From contig NC_003272.1 of the NCBI RefSeq assembly GCF_000009705.1, positions 1,620,001 to 1,652,000 on the forward strand: a DNA stretch of 32,000 nucleotides. Reading direction: 5' to 3'. The notes under the pieces are model-generated. The model was not told where the DNA came from. It did not search any database and was given only the letters and a program-made list of their open reading frames with translations. Both the position numbers and the translations under genes were made by a program. This document shows, in pieces, positions 6,026-31,151 of this stretch. Position 1 is the stretch's first letter. Each line of letters starts with the position of its first letter. This DNA is from Nostoc sp. PCC 7120 = FACHB-418 (GTDB taxonomy: Bacteria; Cyanobacteriota; Cyanobacteriia; Cyanobacteriales; Nostocaceae).

Positions 6026-6862
6026 ATGAGACGAATTGCGATCGCCGAAAATACCTTAAAAATTCTTAACATAGGTAACTACATTTGTGCTGATGGCAAT
6101 CAAGTTTATATCAGCCAAGAATTGGAATATTGTTTGTATTTAACAAAGTGCTACAGCCCCGAAAATTTGGCAAAGATTGAAACTAAGGTGCTGAATAGCC
6201 TTCCTCGTTTTTCAGCAACTGAATTTGCAGTCAGGAATGAGACAACATTAATAGGAGCCGAACGCATAGTCAAAAGTGAAAAATTTCAACAAGTTGGTGT
6301 TTTGAATTTTGCTTCTGCGAAAAACCCAGGAGGTGGATTTATCAGAGGGGCGCAGGCTCAGGAAGAAAGTTTAGCCAGAAGTTCAGCGCTTTACAAAAGC
6401 CTGTTGAAATGTCCTGAATATTATAATTTTCATCGCCATGAGCGATCGCTTTTGTACTCAGATTGGATGATTTATTCTCCCAGTTGTCCAGTCTTCAAAA
6501 ACGATGATGGTGAACTATTAGCACAGCCCTATGTTGTAGATTTCATCACCAGTCCAGCACCAAATGCAGGCATGATTCAAAAAAATCAACCGCACCTCAG
6601 CGTTAAAATACCCCAAGTGCTTATGAATCGAACATCAAAGCTGTTGAGTTTGGCAAGCAACCAAGGCTGCGATGCTTTGGTTTTAGGTGCTTGGGGATGT
6701 GGAGTCTTTAGAAATGACCCAGCGATAGTTTCCCAAATATTTGCAGATTTATTATTACCAGGTGGTCAATTTTGGGGCAGATTTAAAAGTGTAATTTTTT
6801 CCGTCCTTGACAATAGTAAACAACAAGCTATTTTTACAGAGTTTGACAGGAGATTTTCTTGA
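6026..6862 (+). CDS. Bacterial-type poly(ADP-ribose) glycohydrolase-like macrodomain protein (DUF2263/TIGR02452-like)
   Basis: 278 aa. PARG signature GGG-X7-QEE (NPGGGFIRGAQAQEES, nt 6329-6367) and a diphosphate-binding loop GAWGCGVFRNDP. Confidence 0.75.
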   Translation: MRRIAIAENTLKILNIGNYICADGNQVYISQELEYCLYLTKCYSPENLAKIETKVLNSLPRFSATEFAVRNETTLIGAERIVKSEKFQQVGVLNFASAKNPGGGFIRGAQAQEESLARSSALYKSLLKCPEYYNFHRHERSLLYSDWMIYSPSCPVFKNDDGELLAQPYVVDFITSPAPNAGMIQKNQPHLSVKIPQVLMNRTSKLLSLASNQGCDALVLGAWGCGVFRNDPAIVSQIFADLLLPGGQFWGRFKSVIFSVLDNSKQQAIFTEFDRRFS

Positions 6863-6967: not shown

Positions 6968-7150
6968 TTGGCGTAGCCTGCGCTAGCGCATAAAATTCTC
7001 AGTATCTGTAGGGTGGGCAATGCCCACCAAAACCATGAGCCGGTGGGCATTGCCCAACGCCACTTGCTCCAAGCCGGGAAACCCTTTCAGCAGTTACTCC
7101 ACTTGGGGAAACCCCAAGACCGTACTGCTTCACCAACGCAGTGGCTCCCC
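6968..7150. repeat. Cluster of dispersed Nostoc-type intergenic repeats
   Basis: ttggcgtagcctgcg resembles the repeats at 8743 and 14989. Near-palindromes are ggtgggcaatgcccacc (7012-7028) and ggtgggcattgcccaac (7042-7058). They are followed by gggaaaccc.../ggggaaaccccaagaccg... modules. Confidence 0.6.
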
Positions 7151-7200
7151 TACGTGTATTTCAAAAATCAAGTATGAGTCCTATAGTATAGATTGTAATA

Positions 7201-7228
7201 ATCCCAATCCCCAATCCCCAATCCCCAA
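7201..7228. repeat. Heptamer repeat (a/t)cccCAA x4 abutting a start codon
   Basis: atcccaa tccccaa tccccaa tccccaa, immediately followed by ATG 7229. Confidence 0.8.
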
Positions 7229-8017
7229 ATGCACAGTTTCATTCCCCCAGAACGGTTTTTCGCCTACCTCACCTGGAAAGAAATTGAGGAAATGCCAAAT
7301 AAGGAGAATGTCGTTATCATCCAGCCAGTAGGGGCAATTGAACAGCATGGACTCCATCTACCATTGATTGTTGATGCTGCCATTGGTGTGGGGGTTTTGG
7401 GGAAAGCTTTATCTAAACTTGATGCTAGCATTCCAGCTTATGCTTTACCCACTCTTTATTATGGTAAATCCAATGAACACTGGCATTTTCCGGGAACGAT
7501 TACCCTGAGTACAGAAACGCTGACAGCGACAATTATGGAAGTGGCAGAAAGCATTTACCGCGCTGGGTTTAGAAAGTTGGTGTTAATGAACTCCCACGGA
7601 GGACAACCCCAAGTTATGCAAATGGTGGCGCGAGATCTGCACGTAAAGTATGGTGATTTTGCAGTTTTTCCTTTGTTTACTTGGCGTGTACCCCACATTA
7701 CTAAAGAATTATTATCACCTAAGGAAGCAATACAAGGAATGCACGCGGGAGATGCGGAAACTAGTATTATGCTGGCGATTTTGCCAGATCAGGTGCAACT
7801 AGATAAAGCCGTGGCAGAATATCCCCCAGAAAAACCTGAAGGTAGCCTATTAAGTTGGGAAGGTAGATTACCTGTGGCTTGGGTAACAAAAGATATTAGT
7901 AAAAGTGGTGTGATTGGCGATGCGACAACTGCAACCAAAGAAAAAGGCGATCGCATTTTAGAATCCGTTTCTGATGGTTGGGTAGAAGTCATCAAAGAAA
8001 TTTACGCCTTTCGCTAA
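7229..8017 (+). CDS. Creatininase (creatinine amidohydrolase) family protein
   Basis: 262 aa. Family motifs PVGAIEQHGLHLPL, LMNSHGGQ and HAGDAETS. Confidence 0.8.
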   Translation: MHSFIPPERFFAYLTWKEIEEMPNKENVVIIQPVGAIEQHGLHLPLIVDAAIGVGVLGKALSKLDASIPAYALPTLYYGKSNEHWHFPGTITLSTETLTATIMEVAESIYRAGFRKLVLMNSHGGQPQVMQMVARDLHVKYGDFAVFPLFTWRVPHITKELLSPKEAIQGMHAGDAETSIMLAILPDQVQLDKAVAEYPPEKPEGSLLSWEGRLPVAWVTKDISKSGVIGDATTATKEKGDRILESVSDGWVEVIKEIYAFR

Positions 8018-8040
8018 AGGAGACAAGGGGATTAAGGCAA

Positions 8041-8101
8041 CAACTAACAACTGTACAGACGCGATTAATCGCGTCTCTGAAAACTGACAACTGACAACTA
8101 A
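8041..8101. repeat. caactga/caactaa heptamers interrupted by a perfect 20-bp palindrome
   Basis: caactaa caactgt (8041-8054), the palindrome agacgcgatt|aatcgcgtct (8057-8076), then aaactga caactga caactaa (8081-8101). Confidence 0.85.
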
Positions 8102-8204
8102 CTAAATTTGCTAGTGTAGGGTTAAGTGCAGTAGTTATCGAAACTGTTTCACAGTTGACGGGCGATAAGTTGCTAAACCACATTAATAATTAGAGATAGC
8201 AGTT

Positions 8205-8708
8205 ATGACGGCATTTGAACCAAATAGTCTCCGTTCTTATAGCCAAGAAGATGTACAGCGAATTTTACAGCTGGCGATCGCCCGGCAAGCTGATGACCAA
8301 GATAAAGATTTTAGTTATGAGCAATTGTTAGAGATTGCTACTGAGTTAGAAATCTCACCAGAAGCTCTCAAGTTAGCGGAAATAGATTGGCGATCGCAAC
8401 ACCACGAATTAAGTCAAAAACAAGCTTTTAATACTTACCGCATGACAAAGTTTAAAAAGCGCCTTGGTAATTATGCGATCGTCAATGGCTTTTTACTGTT
8501 GGTGGATTTTGTCGGTGGTGGAACGGTTACTTGGTCGTTATACTTGCTACTGTTTTGTGGTTTGGCAGTAGGGTTGGATGTGTGGAATACGTTTCAAACT
8601 AAAGGCGAAGAGTATGAAATGGCTTTCCAGCGCTGGAATCGCAAACATCAAATTAAACAAACCATCAACAGCTTTGTGAATAAGTGCTTTAAAGCGTTAC
8701 AAGCTTAA
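8205..8708 (+). CDS. 2TM-domain membrane protein of unknown function
   Basis: 167 aa. Soluble acidic N-terminal half, then two adjacent hydrophobic helices (YAIVNGFLLLVDFVGGG / WSLYLLLFCGLAVGLDVW). Confidence 0.7.
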   Translation: MTAFEPNSLRSYSQEDVQRILQLAIARQADDQDKDFSYEQLLEIATELEISPEALKLAEIDWRSQHHELSQKQAFNTYRMTKFKKRLGNYAIVNGFLLLVDFVGGGTVTWSLYLLLFCGLAVGLDVWNTFQTKGEEYEMAFQRWNRKHQIKQTINSFVNKCFKALQA

Positions 8709-8710
8709 AC

Positions 8711-8814
8711 CAATTCGCAATTCGCAATTCGCAATTCGCAATAGCCTGCGGCATCTCTTACGAGAGGCTAACCGCCAACGCGTAGCATCTCGTAGAGAAG
8801 GCTAACGCCAACGC
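8711..8814. repeat. caattcg heptamers x4 plus dispersed repeat modules (left flank of the sigma/CHAT cluster)
   Basis: caattcg x4 (8711-8738), caattcgcaatagcctg (8732-8748), agcctgcggcat (8743-8754), ggctaaccgccaacgc (8766-8781) and ggctaacgccaacgc (8800-8814). Confidence 0.85.
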
Positions 8815-9047
8815 AACTTGCCTTTTCCGTGTTTTAACGGGGATTCAGCGCAAATAATTAAGGGTAAGATTAGCTAGAAAACTCTCTGAAGTTAAGTTTT
8901 GATAGAGTTTTCGATTTGCTTATCTATACTTGCCCATCTATACTTAGTACCAGTGTGAAAAAAGAATGTGACAGATACATACGGACATACATTTATTCTG
9001 TTTGGCTTTCCTAATTTTGAATTTTGTAGCTTGCTTCCCGTAGGGTA

Positions 9048-9064
9048 TTTTGAATTTTGAATTG
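9048..9064 (+). repeat. TTGAATT heptamer leader repeat ending 5 nt before the start codon
   Basis: tttgaatt ttgaattg, then ctatc, then ATG 9070. A further copy, ttttgaattttg, lies at 9015-9026. Confidence 0.7.
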
Positions 9065-9069
9065 CTATC

Positions 9070-10275
9070 ATGCGTCCTCGCCAAAGTATCGCTGAAATGT
9101 TTTCTACCTTCCTGCAATTTGATGCCGATCGCTTCGGTGGTTGGGTGTATGATGGCAAATTGCGGCGGAGCATTCAGAATTGCTTGGGACAAATATCACA
9201 AACGCAACACTCAGAGAATTTTTGGGCGATTTACTGGCATAAAAACTGGCAGACTCAGCCTAGTTCCTTAGCGGAAGGACACCTATCCGCTTATTTGCAA
9301 GAAACCTGTTATTGGGCTGCACAGAGGACAATTCCCCAGTTTGCCAGTATTCAGTGTACATTATCTGACTGTTTTCAAATGGCGATCGCTGAAGTACCAA
9401 AAATCTTAAAAGGTTGCGACCCTGACCAAAGAGCTAGCCTCAAAAGCTATGGTACTGTGGCTTTTGGGAATATTATTCGGGATGCTTTACGTCAAAAGCA
9501 AGAAATAGATTTTTGTAATGATTGGGCATTGTTGCTGAAGTTGAGCCGCAAGCAACTACAGGAATCATTAAAAAGTTCTGGGCTAACAGATGAAACAATG
9601 GCGAGTTATTTGTTAGCTTGGAAATCCTTTACAGACGGCTACATCCTCACTAAATCACCAAAAGCGCGGAAATTACAAAAACCAGAGGATGATACTTGGG
9701 ATATTATCGCCCAACTTTATAACCGCGATCGCCTAACACAACTCAACCCCTCAGTCCGCGAGTGTAACCGGGAAACCTTAGAACAATGGTTGCTTTTTTG
9801 TGCGAAACAAGCACGTTCTTATTTATATCCTGTGGTGTCTTCCCTAAATATTCCCAAGGTGGGTCAAGCAGATGGGGAATGGCAAGATGATTTACCAGAC
9901 ACCAGTAATCGTGAATCTTTACTGGCAGATTTAATCGCCGCAGAAGAAGCCGAAACTCAAAAAAATCAGCAACAAGAAATCTATAATCTCTTAGTGACTA
10001 CATTGGCAAAACTGCCCCCGCAATCACAACAGTTGTTGCAACTGTACTATCAGCAAGGACTAACCCAACAACAAATCGCCAAACAGCAGGAAATTCAGCA
10101 ATATCAAGTATCTCGGCAATTATCTAAAACCAGAGAATCTTTACTTTTAGCAATTACTAAATGGAGTCAGGAAAAATCGCATATTTCCCCGACTTCCAAC
10201 GTGGTTAAGCATATTAGCGCAATATTAGAGGAATGGTTACAGAATTATTTCCGTAATCTCTCTGCAAAGGAGTAG
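9070..10275 (+). CDS. Sigma-70 family-like RNA polymerase sigma factor (atypical, Q-rich)
   Basis: 401 aa. Region-2-like segment (SDCFQMAIAE...LKSYGTVAFGNIIRDALRQ) and a region-4 HTH (LPPQSQQLLQLYYQQGLTQQQIAKQQEIQQYQVSRQLSKTRESLL). Confidence 0.7.
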   Translation: MRPRQSIAEMFSTFLQFDADRFGGWVYDGKLRRSIQNCLGQISQTQHSENFWAIYWHKNWQTQPSSLAEGHLSAYLQETCYWAAQRTIPQFASIQCTLSDCFQMAIAEVPKILKGCDPDQRASLKSYGTVAFGNIIRDALRQKQEIDFCNDWALLLKLSRKQLQESLKSSGLTDETMASYLLAWKSFTDGYILTKSPKARKLQKPEDDTWDIIAQLYNRDRLTQLNPSVRECNRETLEQWLLFCAKQARSYLYPVVSSLNIPKVGQADGEWQDDLPDTSNRESLLADLIAAEEAETQKNQQQEIYNLLVTTLAKLPPQSQQLLQLYYQQGLTQQQIAKQQEIQQYQVSRQLSKTRESLLLAITKWSQEKSHISPTSNVVKHISAILEEWLQNYFRNLSAKE

Positions 10276-10280
10276 TAATT

Positions 10281-11411
10281 ATGTCGTCATTCTGTGTTCC
10301 ACCCACTCAACTTTGGTTAGAGGTATCTGCTGGCATTCAAGACCAATCTTGGCAGCAAAGCCAAACTTGCCTTAATCCCAGTGGTCGTTGGCATATTTTT
10401 CTCAACCAAGTATGCCTGAGTACCTTTTTACCTTGGCTGCAAGCTGAGTACTCACCAGAAGCTACTCTTGCCACAGTTCCCAATAGTTGGGAATTCGTCA
10501 ACGGGACTGCTATAAATTTAGATACAAAACGCCTCATCCTCATTCCCGATAAAAGCCTAGACACAAGAGAATTTCATGTCCCCCAAGAATGGATAGATAT
10601 TCCTCAATGGGCAGGAGATTATTATCTAGCAGTACAAGTCAGTCCAGACGGGGAATGGCTAAGAATTTGGGGCTATACCACCCATGAGCAATTGAAAAAT
10701 CAAGGTAGTTACGATCCTCAAGAAAGGACTTACTCCTTAAAAGCCTATCAAATGATTGAGGATTTGAATGTACTTTGGGTAGTACGTCAACTATATCCTG
10801 AAGAACAAACACAAGTAGCGATCGCTCCTTTAGCTGAGTTATCACCCACCCAAGTAGATAACCTCTGGCAAAGGTTAAGTAATCCAGCAATTACGAACCC
10901 ACGCTTAGAACTGCCCTTTGAAATCTGGGGGGCTTTATTAGCTAAGTCACAACAACCACAACCAAAATCAGCACTTGTCAACTTGCGTCAGTGGTTACAA
11001 AATACCTTGACAAATAGCTGGCAAACCGTCGAAACTCTTCTGGGAACACAGCCAGATTTTGCCTTCAGCTTTCGTCAAGCCGATGATACAGCTGAACGAT
11101 CAATCCAGCGCGTTAAGGTAATCGACCTACCAAGCGGTCAAACCATAGTGCTAATGTTGACTTTGACACTAGAAACAGATGGTAGAGTAGGAATCCGCGT
11201 CCAATTGTCTCCCAGAGAACGAGGAATTTATTTACCTGAGAATATGAGATTAGAGTTAATTTCTGCCTCAGGGCAAGTTGTCCAATCAGTAGAAGCACGA
11301 GAAACAGACAACTCCATCCAACTTAAACGCTTCCGATGTCCACAAAACACCCGCTTTAGCCTTCAGCTAATTCTCGATGATTTCAGTTTTGTTGAAGAGT
11401 TTGAAAGTTAG
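10281..11411 (+). CDS. DUF1822-like cytoplasmic protein
   Basis: 376 aa with no TM segment. It starts 5 nt after the sigma-like gene stop. The N-terminal FLNQVCLSTFLPWLQAEY pattern and the size match my recollection of the cyanobacterial DUF1822 family. Confidence 0.65.
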   Translation: MSSFCVPPTQLWLEVSAGIQDQSWQQSQTCLNPSGRWHIFLNQVCLSTFLPWLQAEYSPEATLATVPNSWEFVNGTAINLDTKRLILIPDKSLDTREFHVPQEWIDIPQWAGDYYLAVQVSPDGEWLRIWGYTTHEQLKNQGSYDPQERTYSLKAYQMIEDLNVLWVVRQLYPEEQTQVAIAPLAELSPTQVDNLWQRLSNPAITNPRLELPFEIWGALLAKSQQPQPKSALVNLRQWLQNTLTNSWQTVETLLGTQPDFAFSFRQADDTAERSIQRVKVIDLPSGQTIVLMLTLTLETDGRVGIRVQLSPRERGIYLPENMRLELISASGQVVQSVEARETDNSIQLKRFRCPQNTRFSLQLILDDFSFVEEFES

Positions 11412-11447
11412 TTATGGCGTTTCTTAATCTACTGGCATACTGAGTAC

Positions 11448-13787
11448 ATGAGTAAACTGATCGTCCTAAATTTAGGAAAAGGAAACTTACACCAAGGATT
11501 TCCGGCGGTCGTAGCTCAACTTTGGCAAACAGATGCTCCTGCTCCTATGCAATTCACGGGGGGATTACCTGCTGCACCACAATTAGAGCATCTTTATCAA
11601 CGTTGGCAACAAATGTACACAGCTTTGTATGCCAATTTGGGATGGCGTAGTCATGACATCGCCGATTTTGAAATTGAAGAAGAAGATATTACTCATATTT
11701 CCCAAGCAGAGTTTGATCATCTCTGCCAAGAATTGCAACAAAGTTTAAACGCATGGTTGAATAGTTCGCCGTTTCTCAATATTGACCGTAAGTTAAGAAC
11801 TCAACTCTCACCCACAGAGGAAATTCGCTGCATTATTGCGGCTGAATCCCATCAGGTTTTACAGCTTCCTTGGTGTTTGTGGCATTTTTTTGACGATTAT
11901 CCCCAAGCGGAAATTGCTCTCAGTCCACCAGAATATACTCGGTCAATTAAAAATTATCCCCAAAAAACTAAAGGTAAGGTGAGGATTTTAGCTATTTTAG
12001 GCGATCGCCACCATATTGATCTAGAAAAAGACCAAACTTTACTCCAGCAATTACCCAATGCGGAACTCACATTTTTAGTGGAACCCAATCGTTCCCAACT
12101 AACAGAACAATTATGGCAATCGGGTTGGGATATTCTCTTTTTTGCTGGTCATAGTTCCAGCCAAGGGAAAGGGCGGATGCTGCTCAATTCTGGCGAGACT
12201 TTGACCATTGATCAATTAAAGTATGGCTTGCAAAAGGCGATCGCTCAAGGGTTGCAATTGGCAATTTTTAACTCTTGTGATGGTTTGGGTCTAGCCCAGG
12301 ATTTAGCCGATTTACATTTACCCCAGGTGATTGTCATGCGCGAACCTGTACCAGACAGGGTGGCGCAGGAATTTTTAAAGCATTTCTTGGCGTTGTTTGC
12401 ACGGGGTAAAACTTTATATGCAGCCGTCAGAGAGGCGCGGCAAAGATTACAATCTCTAGAACAGGATTTTCCCTGTGCTACTTGGTTGCCAATTATTTGC
12501 CAAAATCCAGCCGAAATTTCCCCGACTTGGCAGGATTTGTCTGGTCAAAGACCAGGGTTAAAGTTACCACGCCCCAATTTCCAACAGCTACCAGTAGTTG
12601 GCTTAAGTAGCTTAATTATTACTTTTATTATCGTATTAATACGGTGGTCAGGTGGACTACAACTATTAGAACTAGGGGCATTTGACCAACTAATGAGGCT
12701 GCGACCTAAAGAAGAACCAGACTCCCGGCTATTGGTAGTAACTATCACCGACCAAGATATTCAAGCCCAAGGAAAAGAACCGCGCCAAGGTTCCCTTTCT
12801 GATAAACATCTCAACTTACTACTCACAAAACTCGAACAATACCAACCAGCAGCTATTGGTTTAGATATATACCGTGATTTTCCCGTGAGTGCTAACCAAC
12901 CAGAATTAGCCAAACGGATGCAGAAAAGCGATCGCCTCATTGCTATTTGTAAACGTGCTGATCCGGAATCCGACCCTACAGGTATTGCACCACCGCCAGA
13001 AATACCAGAAACACGGTTGGGTTTTAGCGACTTTGTGGAAGATGAGGATAGTGTGATGCGTCGCCATCTCTTGGCGATGACTCCCAACCCAATTTCGCCA
13101 ACTTGTACCCCTGCTTATGCTTTTAGTGTGCAGTTAGCGTTTTTGTATCTCCAAGCCCAGGGAATTACAACCAAATTTACCCCAAATTGGGACTTGCTAT
13201 TGGGGAAAAAAACCTTCCCACGCTTACAGAATCGGGCTAGTGGTTATCAATCAATAGATGCCCAAGGTACTCAGATTTTACTAAATTATCGTTTTGCGCC
13301 TTCAGTAGGGGCGATCGCTCGCCAAGTTACCCTGAGCCAAATCTTGAACGGACAAATTAACCCCAACGCCATCAAAAACCGCATTATTTTGATTGGTGTC
13401 ACCAGTAATAGCACTAGCGATTACTGGCCTACACCTGATAGTAAATCTCCTACAGCGATCGTTCCCGGCATTGTGATTCAAGCGCAAATGGTCAGCCAGC
13501 TAATCAGCGCCGCTTTAGATAACCGACCCCTATTATGGGTTTGGACTCAATGGGGTGAAATCTGCTGGATTTGGAGTTGGTCTTTGACTGGTGGTCTACT
13601 GGCGTGGTACATTCCCAGAAAGACTTACTTAAGTATTGCTGTAACTATAGGAACAATCACCTTATCTGGACTATGTTTTATCCTGTTAATTCAAGGTGGC
13701 TGGATACCTTTAGTCCCACCGATGATTGCATTAGTAGTCACTAGCGCTCAATTTGCTTACATCAGCCAAAAATTACAGAAATTGTAG
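11448..13787 (+). CDS. CHAT (caspase-like protease) - TM - CHASE2 sensor - 3TM membrane protein
   Basis: 779 aa. CHAT core with His235 (FFAGHSS, nt 12150-12152) and Cys277 (IFNSCDG, nt 12276-12278). TM helix at about residues 381-400. CHASE2 motifs: LLVVTITDQD, IGLDIYRDFP, DSVMRRH, ILIGVTSNSTSDYWPTP and PGIVIQAQMVSQLI. Three C-terminal TM helices and no C-terminal output domain. Confidence 0.85.
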   Translation: MSKLIVLNLGKGNLHQGFPAVVAQLWQTDAPAPMQFTGGLPAAPQLEHLYQRWQQMYTALYANLGWRSHDIADFEIEEEDITHISQAEFDHLCQELQQSLNAWLNSSPFLNIDRKLRTQLSPTEEIRCIIAAESHQVLQLPWCLWHFFDDYPQAEIALSPPEYTRSIKNYPQKTKGKVRILAILGDRHHIDLEKDQTLLQQLPNAELTFLVEPNRSQLTEQLWQSGWDILFFAGHSSSQGKGRMLLNSGETLTIDQLKYGLQKAIAQGLQLAIFNSCDGLGLAQDLADLHLPQVIVMREPVPDRVAQEFLKHFLALFARGKTLYAAVREARQRLQSLEQDFPCATWLPIICQNPAEISPTWQDLSGQRPGLKLPRPNFQQLPVVGLSSLIITFIIVLIRWSGGLQLLELGAFDQLMRLRPKEEPDSRLLVVTITDQDIQAQGKEPRQGSLSDKHLNLLLTKLEQYQPAAIGLDIYRDFPVSANQPELAKRMQKSDRLIAICKRADPESDPTGIAPPPEIPETRLGFSDFVEDEDSVMRRHLLAMTPNPISPTCTPAYAFSVQLAFLYLQAQGITTKFTPNWDLLLGKKTFPRLQNRASGYQSIDAQGTQILLNYRFAPSVGAIARQVTLSQILNGQINPNAIKNRIILIGVTSNSTSDYWPTPDSKSPTAIVPGIVIQAQMVSQLISAALDNRPLLWVWTQWGEICWIWSWSLTGGLLAWYIPRKTYLSIAVTIGTITLSGLCFILLIQGGWIPLVPPMIALVVTSAQFAYISQKLQKL

Positions 13788-13860
13788 ACAGAGGAAGTGT
13801 ATTAAAAGATGAGGCAAATAAAAAACCAGTAATTTGGTTGATGACACAACGGTTTCTGCT

Positions 13861-14631
13861 ATGAAAAAGGTATTTCGGTTTTCAACTACCACTCTTATCT
13901 GTGCGATCGCTTTAGGTATATGTAATTTACCTGGAATGGAGCAAATTGGGCAGGCACAAACCCTCACATCAACCACCAAAATTAATTATGTTCCTCCCAC
14001 AGCCCAAGACAAACCAGGAGAACCTAGAGGACGGCGCAGAGGTGGCGGAAGTCGCGGCCCCTGTAAGCAGTATGAAACCCTCACAGCTTTAGTACCCATC
14101 AATAGTACAGGAACAAAAGAATCAGTTTGGGGACAATCCACAGATCAAAACCCAACATTTTGGTTTTTTGTACCTGACAAACTCACTCCCAAGGTTCCTA
14201 TTGAGTTTGTTATCCAAGACGAAGCAGATAATTACGTTTATCAGACCAAATTTAATCCCTCAGAAACACAACCAGGAATTATCAGCTTAACGGCCAAGCC
14301 GCAAACACCCCTCGTTGCTGGTAAATCTTATCATTGGACTTTTTCTATTTATTGCGACCCAGAAAAACCCTCAGCTTCCGTCTACGTTCGCGGCTCCATC
14401 ACACAAGTTGCTTTAAACCCAACACTACAAAAGCAACTGGAATTAGCCAAAACTCCTCTAGAACGAGCAACCTTTTTTGCTAAAAATGGGATCTGGTACA
14501 ATGCTTTGACAACCTTAGGAGAACAAATCCAAAACACCAAAACGATAGATTCACAAATCACATCCGCTTGGACTCACTTACTGAAACAAGTTAACCTGCA
14601 TAACTCTGCTTCTGCTGAGATTGTTCGCTGA
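13861..14631 (+). CDS. Secreted DUF928-like protein
   Basis: ATG 13861 gives MKKVFRFSTTTLICAIALGICNLPG, a typical signal peptide. The track start at 13834 adds 9 non-hydrophobic residues. PP-X-GEPRGRRRGGGSRGPC motif at nt 13993-14064, then FWFFVP. The family name is from memory. Confidence 0.7.
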   Translation: MKKVFRFSTTTLICAIALGICNLPGMEQIGQAQTLTSTTKINYVPPTAQDKPGEPRGRRRGGGSRGPCKQYETLTALVPINSTGTKESVWGQSTDQNPTFWFFVPDKLTPKVPIEFVIQDEADNYVYQTKFNPSETQPGIISLTAKPQTPLVAGKSYHWTFSIYCDPEKPSASVYVRGSITQVALNPTLQKQLELAKTPLERATFFAKNGIWYNALTTLGEQIQNTKTIDSQITSAWTHLLKQVNLHNSASAEIVR

Positions 14632-15097: not shown

Positions 15098-15676
15098 TTA
15101 TTTCTCCCGTAGTTGCCTTTCTATCAGCATTTGCGGTTCGACATTCTCCACATTCTTTATAGCTGATAGTTGAGCTATTCCTTTGAGAGCATCAGCAATT
15201 TTATTTGTTTTGGCACGTAACCAACCAGCATTAGGCGCATAGGCTAGGGTTTTCGCTACTTCATAACCTGCTTGATTGATGGCAGCTTGTTGTGATTCAA
15301 TATCAACACCTTCTGTAAAACGGATGAAAACTAGCCCAGTAGGCACAGTCAGAGTTCCGTTATTTTCTAAGGTATATACTGGGCTGAGTGTGTCTGTATT
15401 GCCAATATTCTGGATTGTTGCATCAGGTTCACCGGAAAAAATAGCGATCGCTCCCTCACCCTCATTCAAGATTAAAATAGCCTGGGATGGTATCGTGCTA
15501 GCTTGTTTGTAATGTGCAGCATAGTATCCAGACTGGCGATTGTAGAAGACACTCGCCTTTGTGCCAACAGGAATTTGTTGGGGATACTCAATAAAATAGT
15601 CTCTTTGGGGTCTCACTTCAGCAATTAAAGGTAGAGAGTACGCCTGTAAAAATAATTCACCAGGAAAATAAAACAT
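15098..15676 (-). CDS. Hypothetical protein whose C-terminal half resembles the PrcA N-terminal prodomain
   Basis: 192 aa with no signal peptide. Residues about 96-190 (PVYTLEN...GLVFIRFTEGVDIESQQAAINQAGYEVAKTLAYAPNAGWLRA...VENVEPQML) align by eye with PrcA residues about 108-190 (PIVYTENLFVKFGHEEDVSFCQEILGRYGLTIKRQLEYARNAYFVSA...VELCHPELV). Confidence 0.6.
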   Translation of the reverse strand: MFYFPGELFLQAYSLPLIAEVRPQRDYFIEYPQQIPVGTKASVFYNRQSGYYAAHYKQASTIPSQAILILNEGEGAIAIFSGEPDATIQNIGNTDTLSPVYTLENNGTLTVPTGLVFIRFTEGVDIESQQAAINQAGYEVAKTLAYAPNAGWLRAKTNKIADALKGIAQLSAIKNVENVEPQMLIERQLREK

Positions 15677-16027: not shown

Positions 16028-18016
16028 ATGGTTCATGTCCGCTATGGTGGTCAGAACGGTGAACAGTACGAACTAGCAATTAGTGAAAATCATATTGTAG
16101 TGCGGACTGAAAGCCGCAGCTCGCTAATTAGCGATCGCCCCTTTGAAGCCGCCCCTGTTTCCTCCCAAGCCCGTAATATCCTCAATCAGTTCGAGTTATC
16201 CACTCGTTTCAGCCAAGCGGGTGTAGAAGTTCTCCATGTGAAAGAACCGAGCCAGGATGGTGCTTTGCGCGATACAGCCAGGGAAATTCTCAATCAAGAA
16301 CCGGAAGTGCAATTTGCTGGACGTGTGTTAATTGATCCAGTCAGTCAACAACCCATAGTTTACACAGAAAACCTTTTCGTGAAGTTTGGCCACGAAGAAG
16401 ACGTTAGTTTCTGCCAAGAAATTTTGGGACGCTACGGCTTAACAATTAAACGTCAACTAGAATACGCCCGTAATGCCTACTTTGTCAGCGCACCCCCCAA
16501 TACTGGTTTAGCCATCTTTGATATTGCCGAAAGGTTGCTCAACGAGGAATCGGTGGAATTGTGTCATCCTGAATTGGTGCGGGAATTTAGGCAACGTCAG
16601 GCATTTTCCCAACAATGGCACCTTAAGGAAACCACAATTGGGGGTAAGACTATCAAGGCTCATGCCAATGTTGAGGCGGCATGGAAGTTGAGCGATGGTA
16701 CGGGAACGATTATTGCCATTATTGACGATGGTGTGGATGTTGACCATGAAGAATTCCGTTCTTCTGGTAAGATTGTTGCCCCTAGAGATGTCACACGCAA
16801 AACTAACTTTCCCACCCCAGGAAACCGAGATAATCACGGTACTGCTTGTGCAGGTGTCGCTTGTGGTAATGGCAACTTTGGGGCTTCTGGTGTAGCGCCT
16901 GGGGCTAAGTTAATGCCCATTCGTTTCGTTTCCGCCCTGGGTTCCCAAGATGAAGCCGACTCTTTTGTCTGGGCTGCTCAAAATGGTGCGGATGTAATTT
17001 CCTGTAGTTGGGGGCCACCAGATGGTACATGGTGGGATGATAAAGACCCCCTACACAAGCAGAAAGTACCTCTACCCGATTCCACAAGACTAGCAATGGA
17101 CTATGCCATCAATAAGGGGCGTAATGGCAAAGGATGTGTGATTTTATTCGCTGCGGGTAATGGTAACGAAAGCGTAGATAATGACGGCTACGCCAGCTAT
17201 GAAAAGGTAATAGCTGTCGCGGCTTGTAACGACTTTGGTACTAGAAGCGCTTATAGTGATTTTGGTCAAGCCGTCTGGTGTGCCTTCCCTAGTAACAACG
17301 GTAACCCTTCCCAAACCCCTGGTATTTGGACTGCCGATCGCTCTGGTGTAGTTGGCTATAATTCTGGTAGTACCAATCTCGGTGATCAAGCAGGTAATTA
17401 TACAAATAGTTTCGGTGGTACTTCTAGCGCCTGTCCGGGTGCGGCTGGTGTCGCTGCCTTGATTCTCTCCCGCAATCCAAATCTGCGTTGGGATGAGGTC
17501 AGAGATATTATTAAACGTTCATGCGATCGCATTGATCCAGTCGGTGGTAACTATAACGCTGAAGGCCGTAGCCCATTCTACGGTTATGGTCGGATCAATG
17601 CCCTCAAAGCGGTAGAATTGGCACTACCAGCACAACCTGAGCCAGTCAGCATTTTTACAGCCGTCCAGGATGTCCCCATTAATGATTTGCAGACATCTCA
17701 ACTCAGTTTAGCGATCGCCAACACCAACCCCATCAAATCTATCAAAGTTACAGTAGACATCGAGCATACTTACATTGGTGACTTAATAGTTAGCCTCAAC
17801 CCCCCTGGAGAATGTGGTGTATTACCGATCATCCTCCACGACCGCAAAGGTGGAGGCGCAGATGATATCAAACAAACTTACGATGAGGTGAGTACACCAG
17901 GACTGACTGCTTTGAAGGGTAAAATTCCTCAAGGAACCTGGACTCTAGAAGTAGCAGATAAAGCACAGGCGGATACAGGGAAGATTCGCAGCTTGACTAT
18001 TGAACTTGGGTTTTAG
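16028..18016 (+). CDS. prcA: Calcium-dependent subtilisin-like serine protease PrcA (S8 peptidase with C-terminal proprotein-convertase P-domain)
   Basis: 662 aa. Catalytic Asp in IAIIDDGVD, His in HGTACAGVA, Asn in FAAGNGN and Ser in GGTSSACPGAAG. P-domain motifs are HTYIGDLIVSLNPPG and GTWTLEVADKAQADTGKIRSLTIELGF. This matches my memory of Anabaena PrcA. Confidence 0.9.
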   Translation: MVHVRYGGQNGEQYELAISENHIVVRTESRSSLISDRPFEAAPVSSQARNILNQFELSTRFSQAGVEVLHVKEPSQDGALRDTAREILNQEPEVQFAGRVLIDPVSQQPIVYTENLFVKFGHEEDVSFCQEILGRYGLTIKRQLEYARNAYFVSAPPNTGLAIFDIAERLLNEESVELCHPELVREFRQRQAFSQQWHLKETTIGGKTIKAHANVEAAWKLSDGTGTIIAIIDDGVDVDHEEFRSSGKIVAPRDVTRKTNFPTPGNRDNHGTACAGVACGNGNFGASGVAPGAKLMPIRFVSALGSQDEADSFVWAAQNGADVISCSWGPPDGTWWDDKDPLHKQKVPLPDSTRLAMDYAINKGRNGKGCVILFAAGNGNESVDNDGYASYEKVIAVAACNDFGTRSAYSDFGQAVWCAFPSNNGNPSQTPGIWTADRSGVVGYNSGSTNLGDQAGNYTNSFGGTSSACPGAAGVAALILSRNPNLRWDEVRDIIKRSCDRIDPVGGNYNAEGRSPFYGYGRINALKAVELALPAQPEPVSIFTAVQDVPINDLQTSQLSLAIANTNPIKSIKVTVDIEHTYIGDLIVSLNPPGECGVLPIILHDRKGGGADDIKQTYDEVSTPGLTALKGKIPQGTWTLEVADKAQADTGKIRSLTIELGF

Positions 18017-27423: not shown

Positions 27424-28719
27424 TTAATCTATGGGTAATTCAATCATAAACTCTAGACCTGCCCCTGGTTGGGAATGACATGATATTTTGCCGTGATGAT
27501 TAACAGTAACAATTTGGTAAGCTATCGATAGACCTAAACCAGTGCCTTTACCGATGGGTTTCGTTGTGTAGAAGGCATTAAATATTTGACTTTGCATTTC
27601 TTCACTAATACCTCCACCATTATCGGCAATTTTGCAAATAATTTGTTCTCCTATTAGCTCAGTTGTGATCCTGATAACACCAGTATTTTCAGAAATTTCG
27701 TAATAATTTTGATTTTTTTGTGTTTCTTCAATAGCATCAATGGCATTGGCGATTAAATTCATAAATACCTGGCTAATTTCACCGGAATAGCATTCAATCA
27801 AGGGTAAATTACCATATTTTTTGACAATTTCAATGGCAGGACGTTCAGAATTGGCTTTTAGTCGATGTCCGAGAATTAGGAGTGTATTGTCTATTGCTTC
27901 GTGGAGGTTAGCTAGTTTCTTACCTGTTTCTTTGTGTCGAGAAAATTTGTTTAATGAGGAGACAATTTCTTGAACGCGATCTGTACCCACGCGCATTGAG
28001 TTAATCACATTAGATAAATCATCTAATAAATAAGTTAAATCAGTTTGATTAATTGCATTTTGAATTTCAGCAGGTGGATTGGGAAAATGCTTTTGATACA
28101 GATAAAGTAAATCTACTACTTCTTGTACATACTTTTGCACAAAATTTAAGTTGCCCGCAATAAAGTTAATGGGGTTATTCACTTCATGGGCAATCCCGGC
28201 TGCCATTTGACCCAAACTAGCAATTTTTTCGGTTTGAATCAGTTGGCTTTGAGTTTTTTGCAGTTCAACATTTTTGGCAATTAAACTTGTTGTTAAATGG
28301 CGCAATTTTAGCTGGTGTTCTATTCTCACCAATACTTCTTCATGCTGAAAAGGTTTAGTGATATAATCTACTGCTCCTAGTTGAAATCCTTTGACCTTAT
28401 CGGCAGTTTCTGATAGCGCAGTCATGAATACCACGGGAATATCACAAAAACGCTGGTCACTTTTAAGACGTTGACAAGTTTCAAAACCATCCATACCCGG
28501 CATCATTATATCTAATAAAATCAAATCGGGCAATAAATCATTTTCTAATCTTTGTAAGGCTTTTTCACCACTGCGCGCCGCCCAAACTTCAAAACTAGAG
28601 TCATCTAAAAAACTCGATAAAACTTGCAAATTGTTGGGATTATCATCAACAGCTAAAATTATGCCCTTGATAGGTAAGTTATCGCTAAAATAATTCTGAT
28701 TGCTTACAGTCGCTCTCAT
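27424..28719 (-). CDS. Response-regulator receiver / histidine kinase fusion
   Basis: 431 aa. REC domain (ILAVDDNPNN...LILLDIMMPGMDGFE...K), H-box AAGIAHEVNNPINFI and an HATPase domain (NLIANAIDAI, DNGGGI, GTGLGLSIA). Confidence 0.9.
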   Translation of the reverse strand: MRATVSNQNYFSDNLPIKGIILAVDDNPNNLQVLSSFLDDSSFEVWAARSGEKALQRLENDLLPDLILLDIMMPGMDGFETCQRLKSDQRFCDIPVVFMTALSETADKVKGFQLGAVDYITKPFQHEEVLVRIEHQLKLRHLTTSLIAKNVELQKTQSQLIQTEKIASLGQMAAGIAHEVNNPINFIAGNLNFVQKYVQEVVDLLYLYQKHFPNPPAEIQNAINQTDLTYLLDDLSNVINSMRVGTDRVQEIVSSLNKFSRHKETGKKLANLHEAIDNTLLILGHRLKANSERPAIEIVKKYGNLPLIECYSGEISQVFMNLIANAIDAIEETQKNQNYYEISENTGVIRITTELIGEQIICKIADNGGGISEEMQSQIFNAFYTTKPIGKGTGLGLSIAYQIVTVNHHGKISCHSQPGAGLEFMIELPID

Positions 28720-31151
28720 GCCATTTCTACCTCATATTGTGTCAAAAACTCAAGGATTACATCCTCGTCAAATTGTCTGGCTAATTGTCTAAGTTGATGA
28801 GCGAAAGTAGCCAAGTTTGTATCTTCTGCCTCTAGTTGATCTGCACATTTGATAATGGCGTTAAAGTTACCCTTTTTCGCTAATGTCAACAGTTCTCGTA
28901 ATACTTCTGGTGGAGGAGTAATTAATTGTGTTGATGGATCATTGTTTTGAGTTACTACATCTGAAATTGCTTGAGTTTCAGACTCAGAAGGTTGATAAAT
29001 CCAGACTAAATTTAAATGACGTTCTAATTGACGCAATAATTCATTTGCCTGTATGGGTTTACTGAGAAAGTCATCACCACCAACTGCCAAGCTGCGATGT
29101 TGATCAGATTCAAAAACACTAGCGGAAGAAACAATAATTTTGAGATTCTTAAACTGGGGTATTTGTCGCAGATTTTGAATTAATGTAAACCCATCCATTT
29201 CTGGCATGAGTAAATCTGTGATAATTAGGTCTGTTGAAATAGCGATCGCTTGTTCTAAACCATCTTGACCATTGACAGCTTCCATTATTTCAAAACCCAA
29301 TGGTTGCAATAAATCATTCAAGACTGTACGATTTTCCCAGCGATCGTCTACTATCAAAATTCTGCGGGGATTTCCCTCAAAACCAATGATTTTTCTGGCT
29401 GAGGTAGTCATCATTGACTGTACCCATTCATTGGTAGCTACCATCTCCAATTCAAACCAAAAGGTGCTACCATGTCCTACTTGACTTGTGACATGGATAT
29501 CACTCCCCATCATCTGCACTAACTGACGAGTAATAGCTAAACCCAGTCCCGTCCCTTCCGTCTGACGCTTTTTTTCACCTACCTGTTCAAAAGGTAAGAA
29601 AATTTTGCTTAATTCTGCGTCAGTGATGCCAATGCCTGTATCTTCTATACAGTAACGAATACGGTGTTTGACTGGTTTTTGCGTAGAGGATTCCTCAATT
29701 GTCTCAACTTTCAACTTAACTTGACCGTGATCAGTAAATTTAATCGCATTACCTAGCAGATTTAACAGCACTTGACGTAACCTTTTGGCATCAATATGCA
29801 GCCATATAGGTAAATTACTGGCAGGTTCATAGACAAACAAAATATCTTTTTGTGCAGCACGAATTTGGCAAATTTCGGCAATACCTTGTATAAAAGACGG
29901 AAAATGCACATCTTCGCCATGTAGTTCTAGTTTCTTGGCTTCAATTTTGGCAAGATCCAAGATGTCATTAATTAAGGTCAGCAGATGGGAACCACATTGT
30001 TCAATAATATTGATGTGATGTTGTTCTTGCTCAGGTAACGTGGAAGAACGTTGCAAAATTTGCGCGCAACCCAAAATCCCATTTAAAGGCGTTCTCAGTT
30101 CATGACTCATGTTAGCTAAAAATTCGCTTTTGGCATGGTTAGCTAAATCAGCCGCCTCTTTAGACTTTTTCAGTTGTGCCTGTTCAAAAGCTTGCACTCG
30201 CCACAAAACAGTAATCATGGTGATAGTTAATCCGCCCACAATCAACGCAATTAAATCTAGAAATTGCAGCCGAGATTCAATATTTTCACGGGGAATCACC
30301 AAAGCCACAGACCAATTAGCAGCCTTTAATGGTATATAAGCAATATATTTTTGTTTACCGTCAATTGCCATTAACTCAATTCCCTGCTGTTTGTTAACCA
30401 TGCGTTGGGCGATCGCTTGTAAACTATGGTCATTAATTTTCAGCAGACTGGGGGCAGGTTTTTCGATAGTGGACATTAAAGTCGAGTCAGGATGAACAAT
30501 CACCTCCCCTTGGGAATTGAGGGCGAAAGCGTAGCTATTTTTACCGTAGGTGAGAGAATTGATCACCTTTGTAATATGGTCAACTTTGACGCTACCGTGA
30601 AACACTCCTATGGGTGAATTGGAAGTTGATAGAATCGGAGTAGCGATCGCAATCAAGGGTATTCCTGTAGAACGGCTAATAAAAGGATCAGAAACACTGC
30701 TTTTTCCTGCTATTCCCTGTTGAAAGTATTCTCTGTCCTTAACATTGTTGTTTGCGCGTCCTGACTTTGTCGTGTAGTAAGAACCATCCGCAATTGACAT
30801 TTGGAATAAGAAAAATTCTTTGATTCTCTCAACTTCAGTCTTTAAATAAGGTTCTGCGACAGCCCAATTTAAGGAGCGTACAGTTGAAGTATTTGCTAAA
30901 GTTTTTACCTCGACTTTGCGAACACTTAACCACGCCTCTATTTGATCAACTCCTGTTTGTACTTCCAGAAAAGCATTCTGTCGTATATCTGCTAGTGCCA
31001 TATTGCGGGCAGCTAAATAGCTAAAGTAGGCAGAAATACTGACAATCAGAGTTGTACCGCCAAGAATAAATCGAATGAGAAAATTCCGTGATGATTGCTT
31101 TCTAGGGTGAGATTTTAGTGAAATTGAGTCATGGCTTGCCAAAGGTTTCAT
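28716..31151 (-). CDS. Hybrid sensor histidine kinase (TM - Cache-like periplasmic domain - TM - HisKA - HATPase - REC - C-terminal helical module)
   Basis: 811 aa. Two TM helices flank an extracytoplasmic domain of about 250 aa. H-box FLANMSHELRTPLNGILG. HATPase motifs NLLGNAIKFT, DTGIGI and GTGLGLAI. REC motifs ILIVDDRWENR and IITDLLMPEMDG. Its stop overlaps the downstream start by 4 nt (ATGA). Confidence 0.9.
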   Translation of the reverse strand: MKPLASHDSISLKSHPRKQSSRNFLIRFILGGTTLIVSISAYFSYLAARNMALADIRQNAFLEVQTGVDQIEAWLSVRKVEVKTLANTSTVRSLNWAVAEPYLKTEVERIKEFFLFQMSIADGSYYTTKSGRANNNVKDREYFQQGIAGKSSVSDPFISRSTGIPLIAIATPILSTSNSPIGVFHGSVKVDHITKVINSLTYGKNSYAFALNSQGEVIVHPDSTLMSTIEKPAPSLLKINDHSLQAIAQRMVNKQQGIELMAIDGKQKYIAYIPLKAANWSVALVIPRENIESRLQFLDLIALIVGGLTITMITVLWRVQAFEQAQLKKSKEAADLANHAKSEFLANMSHELRTPLNGILGCAQILQRSSTLPEQEQHHINIIEQCGSHLLTLINDILDLAKIEAKKLELHGEDVHFPSFIQGIAEICQIRAAQKDILFVYEPASNLPIWLHIDAKRLRQVLLNLLGNAIKFTDHGQVKLKVETIEESSTQKPVKHRIRYCIEDTGIGITDAELSKIFLPFEQVGEKKRQTEGTGLGLAITRQLVQMMGSDIHVTSQVGHGSTFWFELEMVATNEWVQSMMTTSARKIIGFEGNPRRILIVDDRWENRTVLNDLLQPLGFEIMEAVNGQDGLEQAIAISTDLIITDLLMPEMDGFTLIQNLRQIPQFKNLKIIVSSASVFESDQHRSLAVGGDDFLSKPIQANELLRQLERHLNLVWIYQPSESETQAISDVVTQNNDPSTQLITPPPEVLRELLTLAKKGNFNAIIKCADQLEAEDTNLATFAHQLRQLARQFDEDVILEFLTQYEVEMA

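Follow-up and report, generated by a model that had tools for sequence, protein, structure and literature searches.

CHASE2 is a widespread bacterial sensor domain, and CHAT proteases have only recently been shown to be signal-activated switches, as in Craspase and SAVED-CHAT. The two meet in a protein class delineated in a purely computational study by Kaur, Iyer, Burroughs and Aravind (eLife 2021; PMC8195603), in which an EACC2 domain and a caspase domain precede a variable C-terminus, CHASE2 included, and a sigma factor of the extracytoplasmic function (ECF) type adjoins along with a DUF1822 protein; these authors proposed that stimulus-induced peptidase activation is coupled to the ECF sigma factor. 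A fusion of a metacaspase (Peptidase_C14) with CHASE2 was reported from Trichodesmium erythraeum by Jiang et al. 2010 (PMC2853523). Two further systems bring a CHAT domain together with an ECF sigma factor: Craspase of type III-E CRISPR, in which the TPR-CHAT protease Csx29 cleaves Csx30 and which includes an RpoE-type ECF sigma factor (PMC9825189, PMC9729208), and DdvA of Myxococcus xanthus, a transmembrane (TM) anti-sigma factor with a TPR-CHAT domain that controls the ECF sigma factor DdvS (PMC11506125). Here we describe a CHAT-CHASE2 membrane protein encoded at 11448..13787 on the plus strand of a 32,000-nucleotide stretch of Nostoc sp. PCC 7120 = FACHB-418 (contig NC_003272.1, positions 1,620,001 to 1,652,000; hereafter the window), together with the four-gene cassette to which it belongs, and compare both with these systems.

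Domain architecture of the CHAT-CHASE2 protein

The open reading frame (ORF) at 11448..13787 starts with ATG and encodes 779 amino acids. The peptides FFAGHSS, IFNSCDG and VIVMREPVPDRVAQEFLKHFLALFARGKTLYAAVREARQRL, and the C-terminus ending in TSAQFAYISQKLQKL, on which a preliminary description made from the sequence alone had been based, are all present in its translation. Pfam assigned residues 200-346 to CHAT (PF12770; E 2.2e-19, a score of 70.4 bits with the cut-off at 24), in a match that covers only positions 115-281 of the 289 in the profile, and residues 392-717 to CHASE2 (PF05226; E 4.4e-68, 230.1 bits with the cut-off at 26.3), in a full-length match (profile positions 3-257 of 257). 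The CHAT and CHASE2 identities given in that description were therefore borne out by the profile searches, and the N-terminal fold was borne out by the structural matches given below. NCBIfam contributed a weak local similarity to the HetF CHAT region and nothing else, no domains besides CHAT and CHASE2 were found in the protein with Pfam or NCBIfam, and no sequence in the PDB was matched by the protein as a whole.

Residues 1-375 were modelled with AlphaFold2 from 33 sequences, which gave a predicted local distance difference test score (pLDDT) of 84 and a predicted template modelling score (pTM) of 0.86. The first 170 residues (11448..11957, plus strand) form an alpha+beta domain in this model, with pLDDT mostly above 90 except in the loop 68-82, and correspond to the EACC2 domain of Kaur et al.; the residues that are invariant in the set of 33 orthologues include N8, G10, G12, G17 and W53. 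The caspase-fold CHAT core was placed at residues 175-352 (11970..12503, plus strand) from the Pfam match and the model. When residues 1-375 were searched against the PDB with Foldseek, Csx29 (8eey_B) was the best match (E 1.2e-10, identity about 10%), and separases, the SAVED-CHAT filament and DdvA (8rot_A, E 2.3e-7) were also matched, all four with a probability of 1.00. The alignments to Csx29 and separase extended over about 390-475 columns (TMq 0.52-0.56) and hence beyond the caspase core alone, so that the first ~170 residues appear to be part of a two-lobed arrangement of the separase/Csx29 type. Judged from the model, residues 1-170 are possibly equivalent to the pseudo-protease half of the separase/Csx29 CHAT.

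His235 (12150-12152) and Cys277 (12276-12278), both on the plus strand, were assigned as the catalytic pair from their invariance and from their positions relative to the strands, as His235 follows the strand 229-233 and Cys277 the strand 271-275 in the AlphaFold2 model, a caspase-like placing. These two residues and the motifs FFAGHS and FNSCDG were invariant in the 33 orthologues, in 150 cluster representatives (clustered at 50% identity), whose identity to the first of them, P0121, is only 30-54%, and in 59 relatives without CHASE2. This leaves an active protease as the one plausible output of the protein, and the proposal that the N-terminal CHAT region is the sole candidate output stood, with no domain at the C-terminus and an invariant His-Cys pair. 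Both sequence and model make the N-terminal region a credible CHAT protease, with proteolysis itself as its predicted activity.

The linker that connects the CHAT core to the membrane (residues 353-380, 12504..12587, plus strand) is flexible and basic, being rich in Pro, Arg and Lys, and was modelled with low confidence (pLDDT <50 at residues 369-375). In 24 homologues, the segment from the end of the CHAT fold (motif QNPAE) to the first TM helix varied from 22 to 53 amino acids, and its sequence was unconserved.

Beyond the linker, TM helix 1 lies at residues ~381-400 (12588..12647, plus strand), where the hydropathy peak reached 2.38 and where a second AlphaFold2 model, of residues 376-779 (pLDDT 86), has a helix at its residues 3-25. 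The CHASE2 ectodomain, which is predicted to be periplasmic, follows at residues ~401-700 (12648..13547, plus strand), as placed by Pfam and by the second model. TM helices 2-4 occupy residues ~701-771 (13548..13760, plus strand), and hydropathy, the second model and the charge pattern resolve them into helices at about 701-721, 727-748 and 756-771 or slightly beyond. The protein then ends with an eight-residue cytoplasmic tail, ISQKLQKL, and the stop codon (13761..13787, plus strand), in close agreement with the ~10 residues that had been counted past the third C-terminal helix. A C-terminal output enzyme, which is typical of classical CHASE2 receptors and not demanded by the Pfam model, is absent from this tail. 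The claim that nothing follows the last TM helices also withstood scrutiny, with tails of 2-34 amino acids past the model end (median 11) in 70 diverse representatives with a complete CHASE2 region. A hidden C-terminal domain or a frameshift was ruled out: all three frames are closed past the stop codon, the DUF928 gene begins 46-73 nucleotides downstream, and the orthologues are equal in length.

Membrane topology

No signal peptide was present at the N-terminus of the CHAT-CHASE2 protein. Lysine and arginine residues number three before TM1, two in the TM2-TM3 loop (PRK, predicted to be cytoplasmic), two in the tail and none in the TM3-TM4 loop. Based on this positive-inside pattern and the lack of a signal peptide, both termini are predicted to face the cytoplasm (N-in/C-in), with CHASE2 in the periplasm and CHAT in the cytoplasm; the cytoplasmic location attributed earlier to the N-terminal region was thus upheld by prediction. 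In classical CHASE2 receptors, three helices separate the domain from cytoplasmic enzymes that use nucleotides, and the predicted N-in/C-in topology agrees with this arrangement. Hydropathy, charge and AlphaFold2 likewise predict one TM helix before CHASE2 and three after it, with the domain outside the cytoplasm. The reversed topology, with CHAT outside, was rejected, as a domain of 380 residues would need to be translocated with no signal peptide and the charge pattern is contrary to it. Taken together, the reading of the protein as a receptor with a caspase-like protease as its output is supported, and for this receptor we infer proteolysis, topology and the flow of the signal.

Distribution and earlier description of the architecture

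A homologue search covered 5.8 billion proteins; of its 8000 examined candidates, 7744 passed E <= 1e-5, a lower bound on the number of homologues. All of the 120 best homologues listed contained both CHAT and CHASE2, most of them were 765-830 amino acids long, and their hosts were Nostocales, Leptolyngbyaceae, Oscillatoriales and other cyanobacteria; the best homologue, from Nostoc parmelioides, was 97% identical, and orthologues were also found in Nostoc sp. PCC 7524, Anabaena cylindrica and Calothrix sp. PCC 7507. The N-terminal 375 residues alone matched at least 2656 clusters (50% identity), 1579 of them at E <= 1e-30, in proteins ranging from 391 to 1841 amino acids. A CHASE2 region was present in 79 of the best 150 cluster representatives, and among 59 relatives without CHASE2 the module was fused to nSTAND1 NTPases (15/59), WD40 propellers (9/59), AAA_16 and further domains. 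Since the same N-terminal module occurs in such varied fusions, the protease module is the constant element and CHASE2 is one of its interchangeable partners.

This bears on how the architecture should be described. The preliminary description had called it an inverted CHASE2 architecture, and its effector is indeed N-terminal; a constant CHAT module with an acquired CHASE2 sensor describes it better. The rarity implied there was wrong, as the architecture is very common in cyanobacteria, is already present in databases and has been published (PMC8195603). The Nostoc locus shows what characterises the EACC2-caspase class, namely a constant N-terminal module with a variable C-terminus, and a sigma factor gene and a DUF1822 gene directly upstream on the same strand.

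The family is also expanded within genomes. Two complete CHAT-CHASE2 genes lie back to back in one of the loci collected (L059; 1433-3775, minus strand, and 7013-9346, plus strand), each with DUF1822 and DUF928, and two CHAT-CHASE2 paralogues (P0095 and P0111) were found in Oscillatoria sp. FACHB-1407. The module gene seems to be split in L025 (6001-7140, an ORF of 379 amino acids) and in L046 (2983-6529, ORFs of 119, 114 and 842 amino acids), which may be pseudogenes or assembly frameshifts.

A four-gene cassette with a sigma factor, DUF1822 and DUF928

In the window, genes for a sigma factor, a DUF1822 protein, the CHAT-CHASE2 protein and a DUF928 protein follow one another in this order on the same strand, with gaps of 5, 36 and 46-73 nucleotides. 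The first gene (9070..10275, plus strand) encodes a sigma-70/ECF-type sigma factor of 401 amino acids (TIGR02937, 115.5 bits against a cut-off of 42.9; Sigma70_r4 at residues 312-358); among PDB entries, a profile search hit region 4 of SigF/FliA. The protein is about twice the usual size of an ECF sigma factor and has an N-terminal extension of ~70 residues and a stretch of ~150 residues between the sigma-2-like and sigma-4 regions. Both are conserved among relatives at 45-52% identity and are therefore probably functional, perhaps as regulatory elements or as a cleavage target.

The DUF1822 protein (376 amino acids; 10281..11411, plus strand) is encoded five nucleotides past the sigma stop codon and matches its Pfam family over the full length (E 6.7e-115). 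It is predicted to be cytoplasmic, and no hydrophobic or TM segments were found in it or in the sigma factor. Searching its profile against the PDB gave nothing significant and confirmed neither a TPR nature nor an anti-sigma function. Candidate roles for DUF1822 are those of an adaptor of the CHAT module, of its substrate and of an anti-sigma factor. The DUF928 protein (256 amino acids from an ATG, 13861..14631, plus strand; Pfam E 8.7e-54), for which the ORF list gives a TTG start at 13834, has a signal-peptide-like N-terminus, as do its relatives, and these sequences are consistent with its export. A conserved basic, glycine-rich motif, GRRxGGxSRGxC (P.GRR.GG.SRG.C), follows soon after the predicted signal-peptide cleavage site, and two cysteines are conserved. 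DUF928 is a candidate periplasmic partner or ligand of CHASE2, and its basic motif may be where it is processed or bound.

Upstream of the sigma gene, no clear -35/-10 pair of an ECF-type promoter was recognised in 17 aligned regions, in which the last ~50 nucleotides are conserved in close relatives only, and a scan for consensus promoters and terminators gave results at or below chance. The same intergenic region contains tandem repeats, namely a perfect array of the heptamer CAATTCG (4.6 copies), a 34-nucleotide unit in 1.9 copies and ATTTTGA in 2.4 copies (8711-8742, 8751-8814 and 9047-9063). Short tandem repeats are common in heterocystous cyanobacteria, and the region is unconserved in relatives.

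Conservation of the cassette in relatives

The gene neighbourhood was compared in 25 genome loci and in 80 metagenome loci, the latter retrieved by conserved protease motifs and representing the best 80 of at least 528 confirmed matches. The full four-gene order was present in essentially all of the 25 genome loci with enough flank, including L021 and L025, at 58-60% identity, and DUF1822 and DUF928 are kept even in L024, at 39% identity. A sigma factor was encoded upstream of the receptor in 22 of 23 genome loci. The module gene has DUF1822 upstream of it in 23/23 genome loci, in 36/42 CHASE2-type metagenome loci and in 9/15 metagenome loci of other types. DUF928, in contrast, follows CHASE2-type genes directly (22/23 genome and 38/49 metagenome loci) and was found downstream of other-type genes in none of 13 loci; the difference between 38/49 and 0/13 corresponds to a Fisher p of 3e-7, uncorrected for shared ancestry. 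The simplest reading of these patterns is that DUF1822 pairs with the constant cytoplasmic protease module and DUF928 with the periplasmic CHASE2. The predicted compartments correspond, as the signal peptides of DUF928 relatives place it in the same compartment as CHASE2, and the lack of TM segments places DUF1822 and the sigma factor in that of CHAT.

A further gene accompanies many CHASE2-type cassettes. It encodes an exported TPR-CHAT protein of ~870-960 amino acids with TPR repeats, a full-length CHAT domain and a clear signal peptide ending in ...SPVLA|K. Among loci of at least 12 kb, the gene sits no more than ~6 kb from the cassette in 12/20 genome loci and 13/25 metagenome loci of the CHASE2 type (25/45 together), and it was found near none of ten non-CHASE2 cassettes. 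The TPR-CHAT genes are located at 9066-13213 (minus strand) in L024, where the gene is paired with that of a ShlB/FhaC-type outer-membrane transporter, at 1306-3930 in L040, 2659-5535 in L050, 1210-3978 in L054, 10704-13415 in L085, 3062-5773 in L087, 7817-10531 in L100, 11458-14094 in L004 and 10572-13172 in L012. No TPR-CHAT gene was found in the 32-kb window; the genome may carry one at another place or lack it. Neither the link of DUF928 to the CHASE2 variant nor that of TPR-CHAT was encountered in the literature searched, and DUF928 goes unmentioned in the text of Kaur et al. (PMC8195603).

Proposed mechanism and alternative explanations

We propose that the CHAT-CHASE2 protein is a four-pass inner-membrane receptor with CHASE2 as the sensor and the cytoplasmic CHAT domain as the sole output, and that the co-encoded sigma factor is switched on by cleavage. 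A signal would reach the periplasmic CHASE2, probably via or together with the exported DUF928. Clustering or dimerisation of the receptor, driven by the ligand, would then activate CHAT, as in caspases and SAVED-CHAT; a rigid piston is less likely, because the linker between CHAT and TM1 is floppy and variable at 22-53 residues. The active CHAT would cut a cytoplasmic partner, for which DUF1822, the long inter-domain region of the sigma factor and the receptor itself are the best candidates, and this cleavage would free or activate the sigma factor and turn its regulon on. The architectural part of this model is near certain, and what we infer is that CHAT is proteolytically active, which protein it cuts, which way the signal runs and what DUF928 does. 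For the model as a whole, the balance tips modestly in its favour.

Several observations weigh against it. The receptor contains no anti-sigma domain recognisable with Pfam or NCBIfam, so it is the gene neighbourhood that ties it to the sigma factor. The long sigma factor was detected upstream in only 9 of 38 CHASE2-type metagenome loci, and in 22 metagenome loci a protein of ~211-250 amino acids, here called A6, is encoded just upstream of DUF1822 instead of the 400-residue sigma factor (A6-type proteins at L031 5344-6096, L044 5154-5804, L085 5347-6000, L100 2524-3432, L088 4977-5927 and L024 4383-5075). A6 proteins have a helix-turn-helix-like stretch at the C-terminus (…CQxLILRRLPPETxWKELxxEFGLxxSTL…) and no match in Pfam or NCBIfam. 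As sigma factors they received no significant support, either from hhalign against the sigma alignment (5.7% probability) or from a PDB profile search (E 0.33 to RpoE), and they may be very divergent sigma-like regulators. The co-occurrence counts, moreover, ignore shared ancestry, and those from metagenomes come from a top-scoring selection of the confirmed matches. On the sensor side, the CHASE2/TM half was compared with the folds in the PDB and no structural relative was found (nothing below E 0.34), which left CHASE2 without a link to any known ligand-binding fold; to our knowledge, no ligand has been identified for CHASE2. The substrates named are candidates, no cleavage motif could be predicted, and no experimental paper on the CHAT-CHASE2 family turned up in the literature searched. 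Lastly, fusions to STAND NTPases and WD40 are typical of conflict and cell-death systems, and the output could therefore be other than transcription.

This last point suggests an alternative function, in which EACC2-CHAT would stand at the heart of immunity or programmed death and, once activated, would process itself or other proteins, and CHASE2 with its four TM helices would be an anchor or a membrane-damaging effector, not a ligand sensor. The fusions of the same module to nSTAND1 (15/59), WD40 (9/59) and AAA_16 would suit such a role, as would the several paralogous cassettes per genome (two in L059, and two proteins in Oscillatoria sp. FACHB-1407). We nevertheless consider it unlikely, as the cassette contains a sigma factor of its own and an exported partner specific to CHASE2, the PADLOC defence models matched none of the four cassette proteins, and the flanks carry housekeeping and transport genes and no defence island. 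CHASE2 is also the sensor domain of cyclases, kinases and GGDEF proteins. It is cited as a receptor domain in both earlier descriptions of caspase-type fusions (PMC8195603, PMC2853523). A different departure from the receptor-protease model would make the CHAT module a non-catalytic scaffold or pseudo-protease that tethers DUF1822 and the sigma factor at the membrane as a sequestering anti-sigma complex, with release brought about otherwise. In favour of this, the His-Cys site of DdvA, a structural relative, is incomplete (PMC11506125), and the Pfam CHAT match is limited to the C-terminal part of the profile (115-281 of 289). However, the invariance of His235, Cys277, FFAGHS and FNSCDG over 150 representatives at 30-54% identity is hard to explain without catalysis and makes such a scaffold highly improbable.

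The TPR-CHAT genes suggest an elaboration of the receptor-protease model into a two-sided relay, in which the exported TPR-CHAT protein would process DUF928 in the periplasm, CHASE2 would sense the product, and the cytoplasmic CHAT would cleave DUF1822 or the sigma factor. In its favour are the frequency of TPR-CHAT genes within ~6 kb (12/20 genome loci and 13/25 metagenome loci of the CHASE2 type, 0/10 loci of other types) and the conserved Arg-rich motif near the mature N-terminus of DUF928, the proposed processing site. On the other hand, CHAT genes are numerous in cyanobacteria, the counts are uncorrected for shared ancestry, and the cleavage is so far hypothetical; the 32-kb window is without a TPR-CHAT gene, and the relay is therefore not obligatory in cis. 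We consider it quite unlikely on this evidence. If true, DUF928 would give CHASE2 its first identified protein partner or ligand, and a caspase-type cascade would cross a bacterial membrane, the inner membrane having a CHAT protease on either side.

Other genes in the window

The cassette is followed by an ORF of 192 amino acids without a family match (15098-15676, minus strand) and by a gene for an S8 subtilase with a proprotein-convertase P-domain (16028-18016, plus strand), which has no obvious signal peptide and gave a weak match to the 'subtilase' model of PADLOC. These two genes are shared only with the closest relative (L001); the other Nostoc loci differ in this region, and several of them carry a TPR-CHAT gene. 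A microbial-type poly(ADP-ribose) glycohydrolase is encoded upstream of the cassette (6026-6862, plus strand), and the window's far end (27424-31151, minus strand) encodes two paired hybrid histidine kinases, of which one carries a dCache sensor. Neither the glycohydrolase nor the kinases have an evident link to the cassette.

Significance and comparison with known systems

The CHAT-CHASE2 family joins a sensor and CHAT in one polypeptide tied to a dedicated sigma factor, and thus offers a compact and genetically tractable system in which to ask how a membrane sensor activates a caspase-like protease, what the protease cuts and what CHASE2 senses. For the last of these questions, DUF928 is a concrete first candidate. 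Given how abundant the family is in filamentous cyanobacteria, it is probably important for signalling in these organisms, be it environmental or developmental.

Among experimentally studied systems, Craspase is the closest functional analogy, as both combine a His-Cys CHAT protease with an ECF sigma factor and Csx29 is the best structural match. Work on Craspase reportedly describes the release of RpoE. Csx29 is activated by RNA-guided Cas7-11, however, and not by a membrane sensor, and the similarity is an analogy only, with no family match: no Cas7-11/gRAMP, Csx30 or CRISPR genes were found in the window, PADLOC matched none of the four cassette proteins, and the locus is without a TPR region.

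The DdvA/DdvS pair resembles the Nostoc cassette in that a membrane protein with a CHAT fold is tied to an ECF sigma factor, here by gene neighbourhood. DdvA has a periplasmic CHAT with an incomplete active site, a cytoplasmic zinc anti-sigma domain and one TM helix (PMC11506125), whereas the Nostoc protein, of opposite predicted topology, has a CHAT predicted to be cytoplasmic, a complete His-Cys pair, four TM helices and no anti-sigma domain. Lacking a cytoplasmic anti-sigma domain, the Nostoc protein is not classed with the membrane anti-sigma factors of the RseA/DdvA type. The fusion from Trichodesmium likewise unites a member of the caspase superfamily with CHASE2 in a cyanobacterium; it differs in containing a C14 metacaspase instead of CHAT, and its operon context was unreported.

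With the classical CHASE2 receptors, which include adenylate cyclases, histidine kinases and GGDEF/EAL proteins, the Nostoc protein shares the full-length domain with one TM helix before it and three after it. Unlike these receptors, it has no C-terminal enzyme and carries an N-terminal protease as its output in place of a nucleotide or phosphate signaller. The EACC2-caspase class of Kaur et al. (PMC8195603) is matched by the window point by point, CHASE2 with TM helices being one of its listed C-terminal options. The Nostoc protein thus adds one more member to a family that is widespread, annotated and already described by computation, and the associations with DUF928 and TPR-CHAT provide a testable lead.

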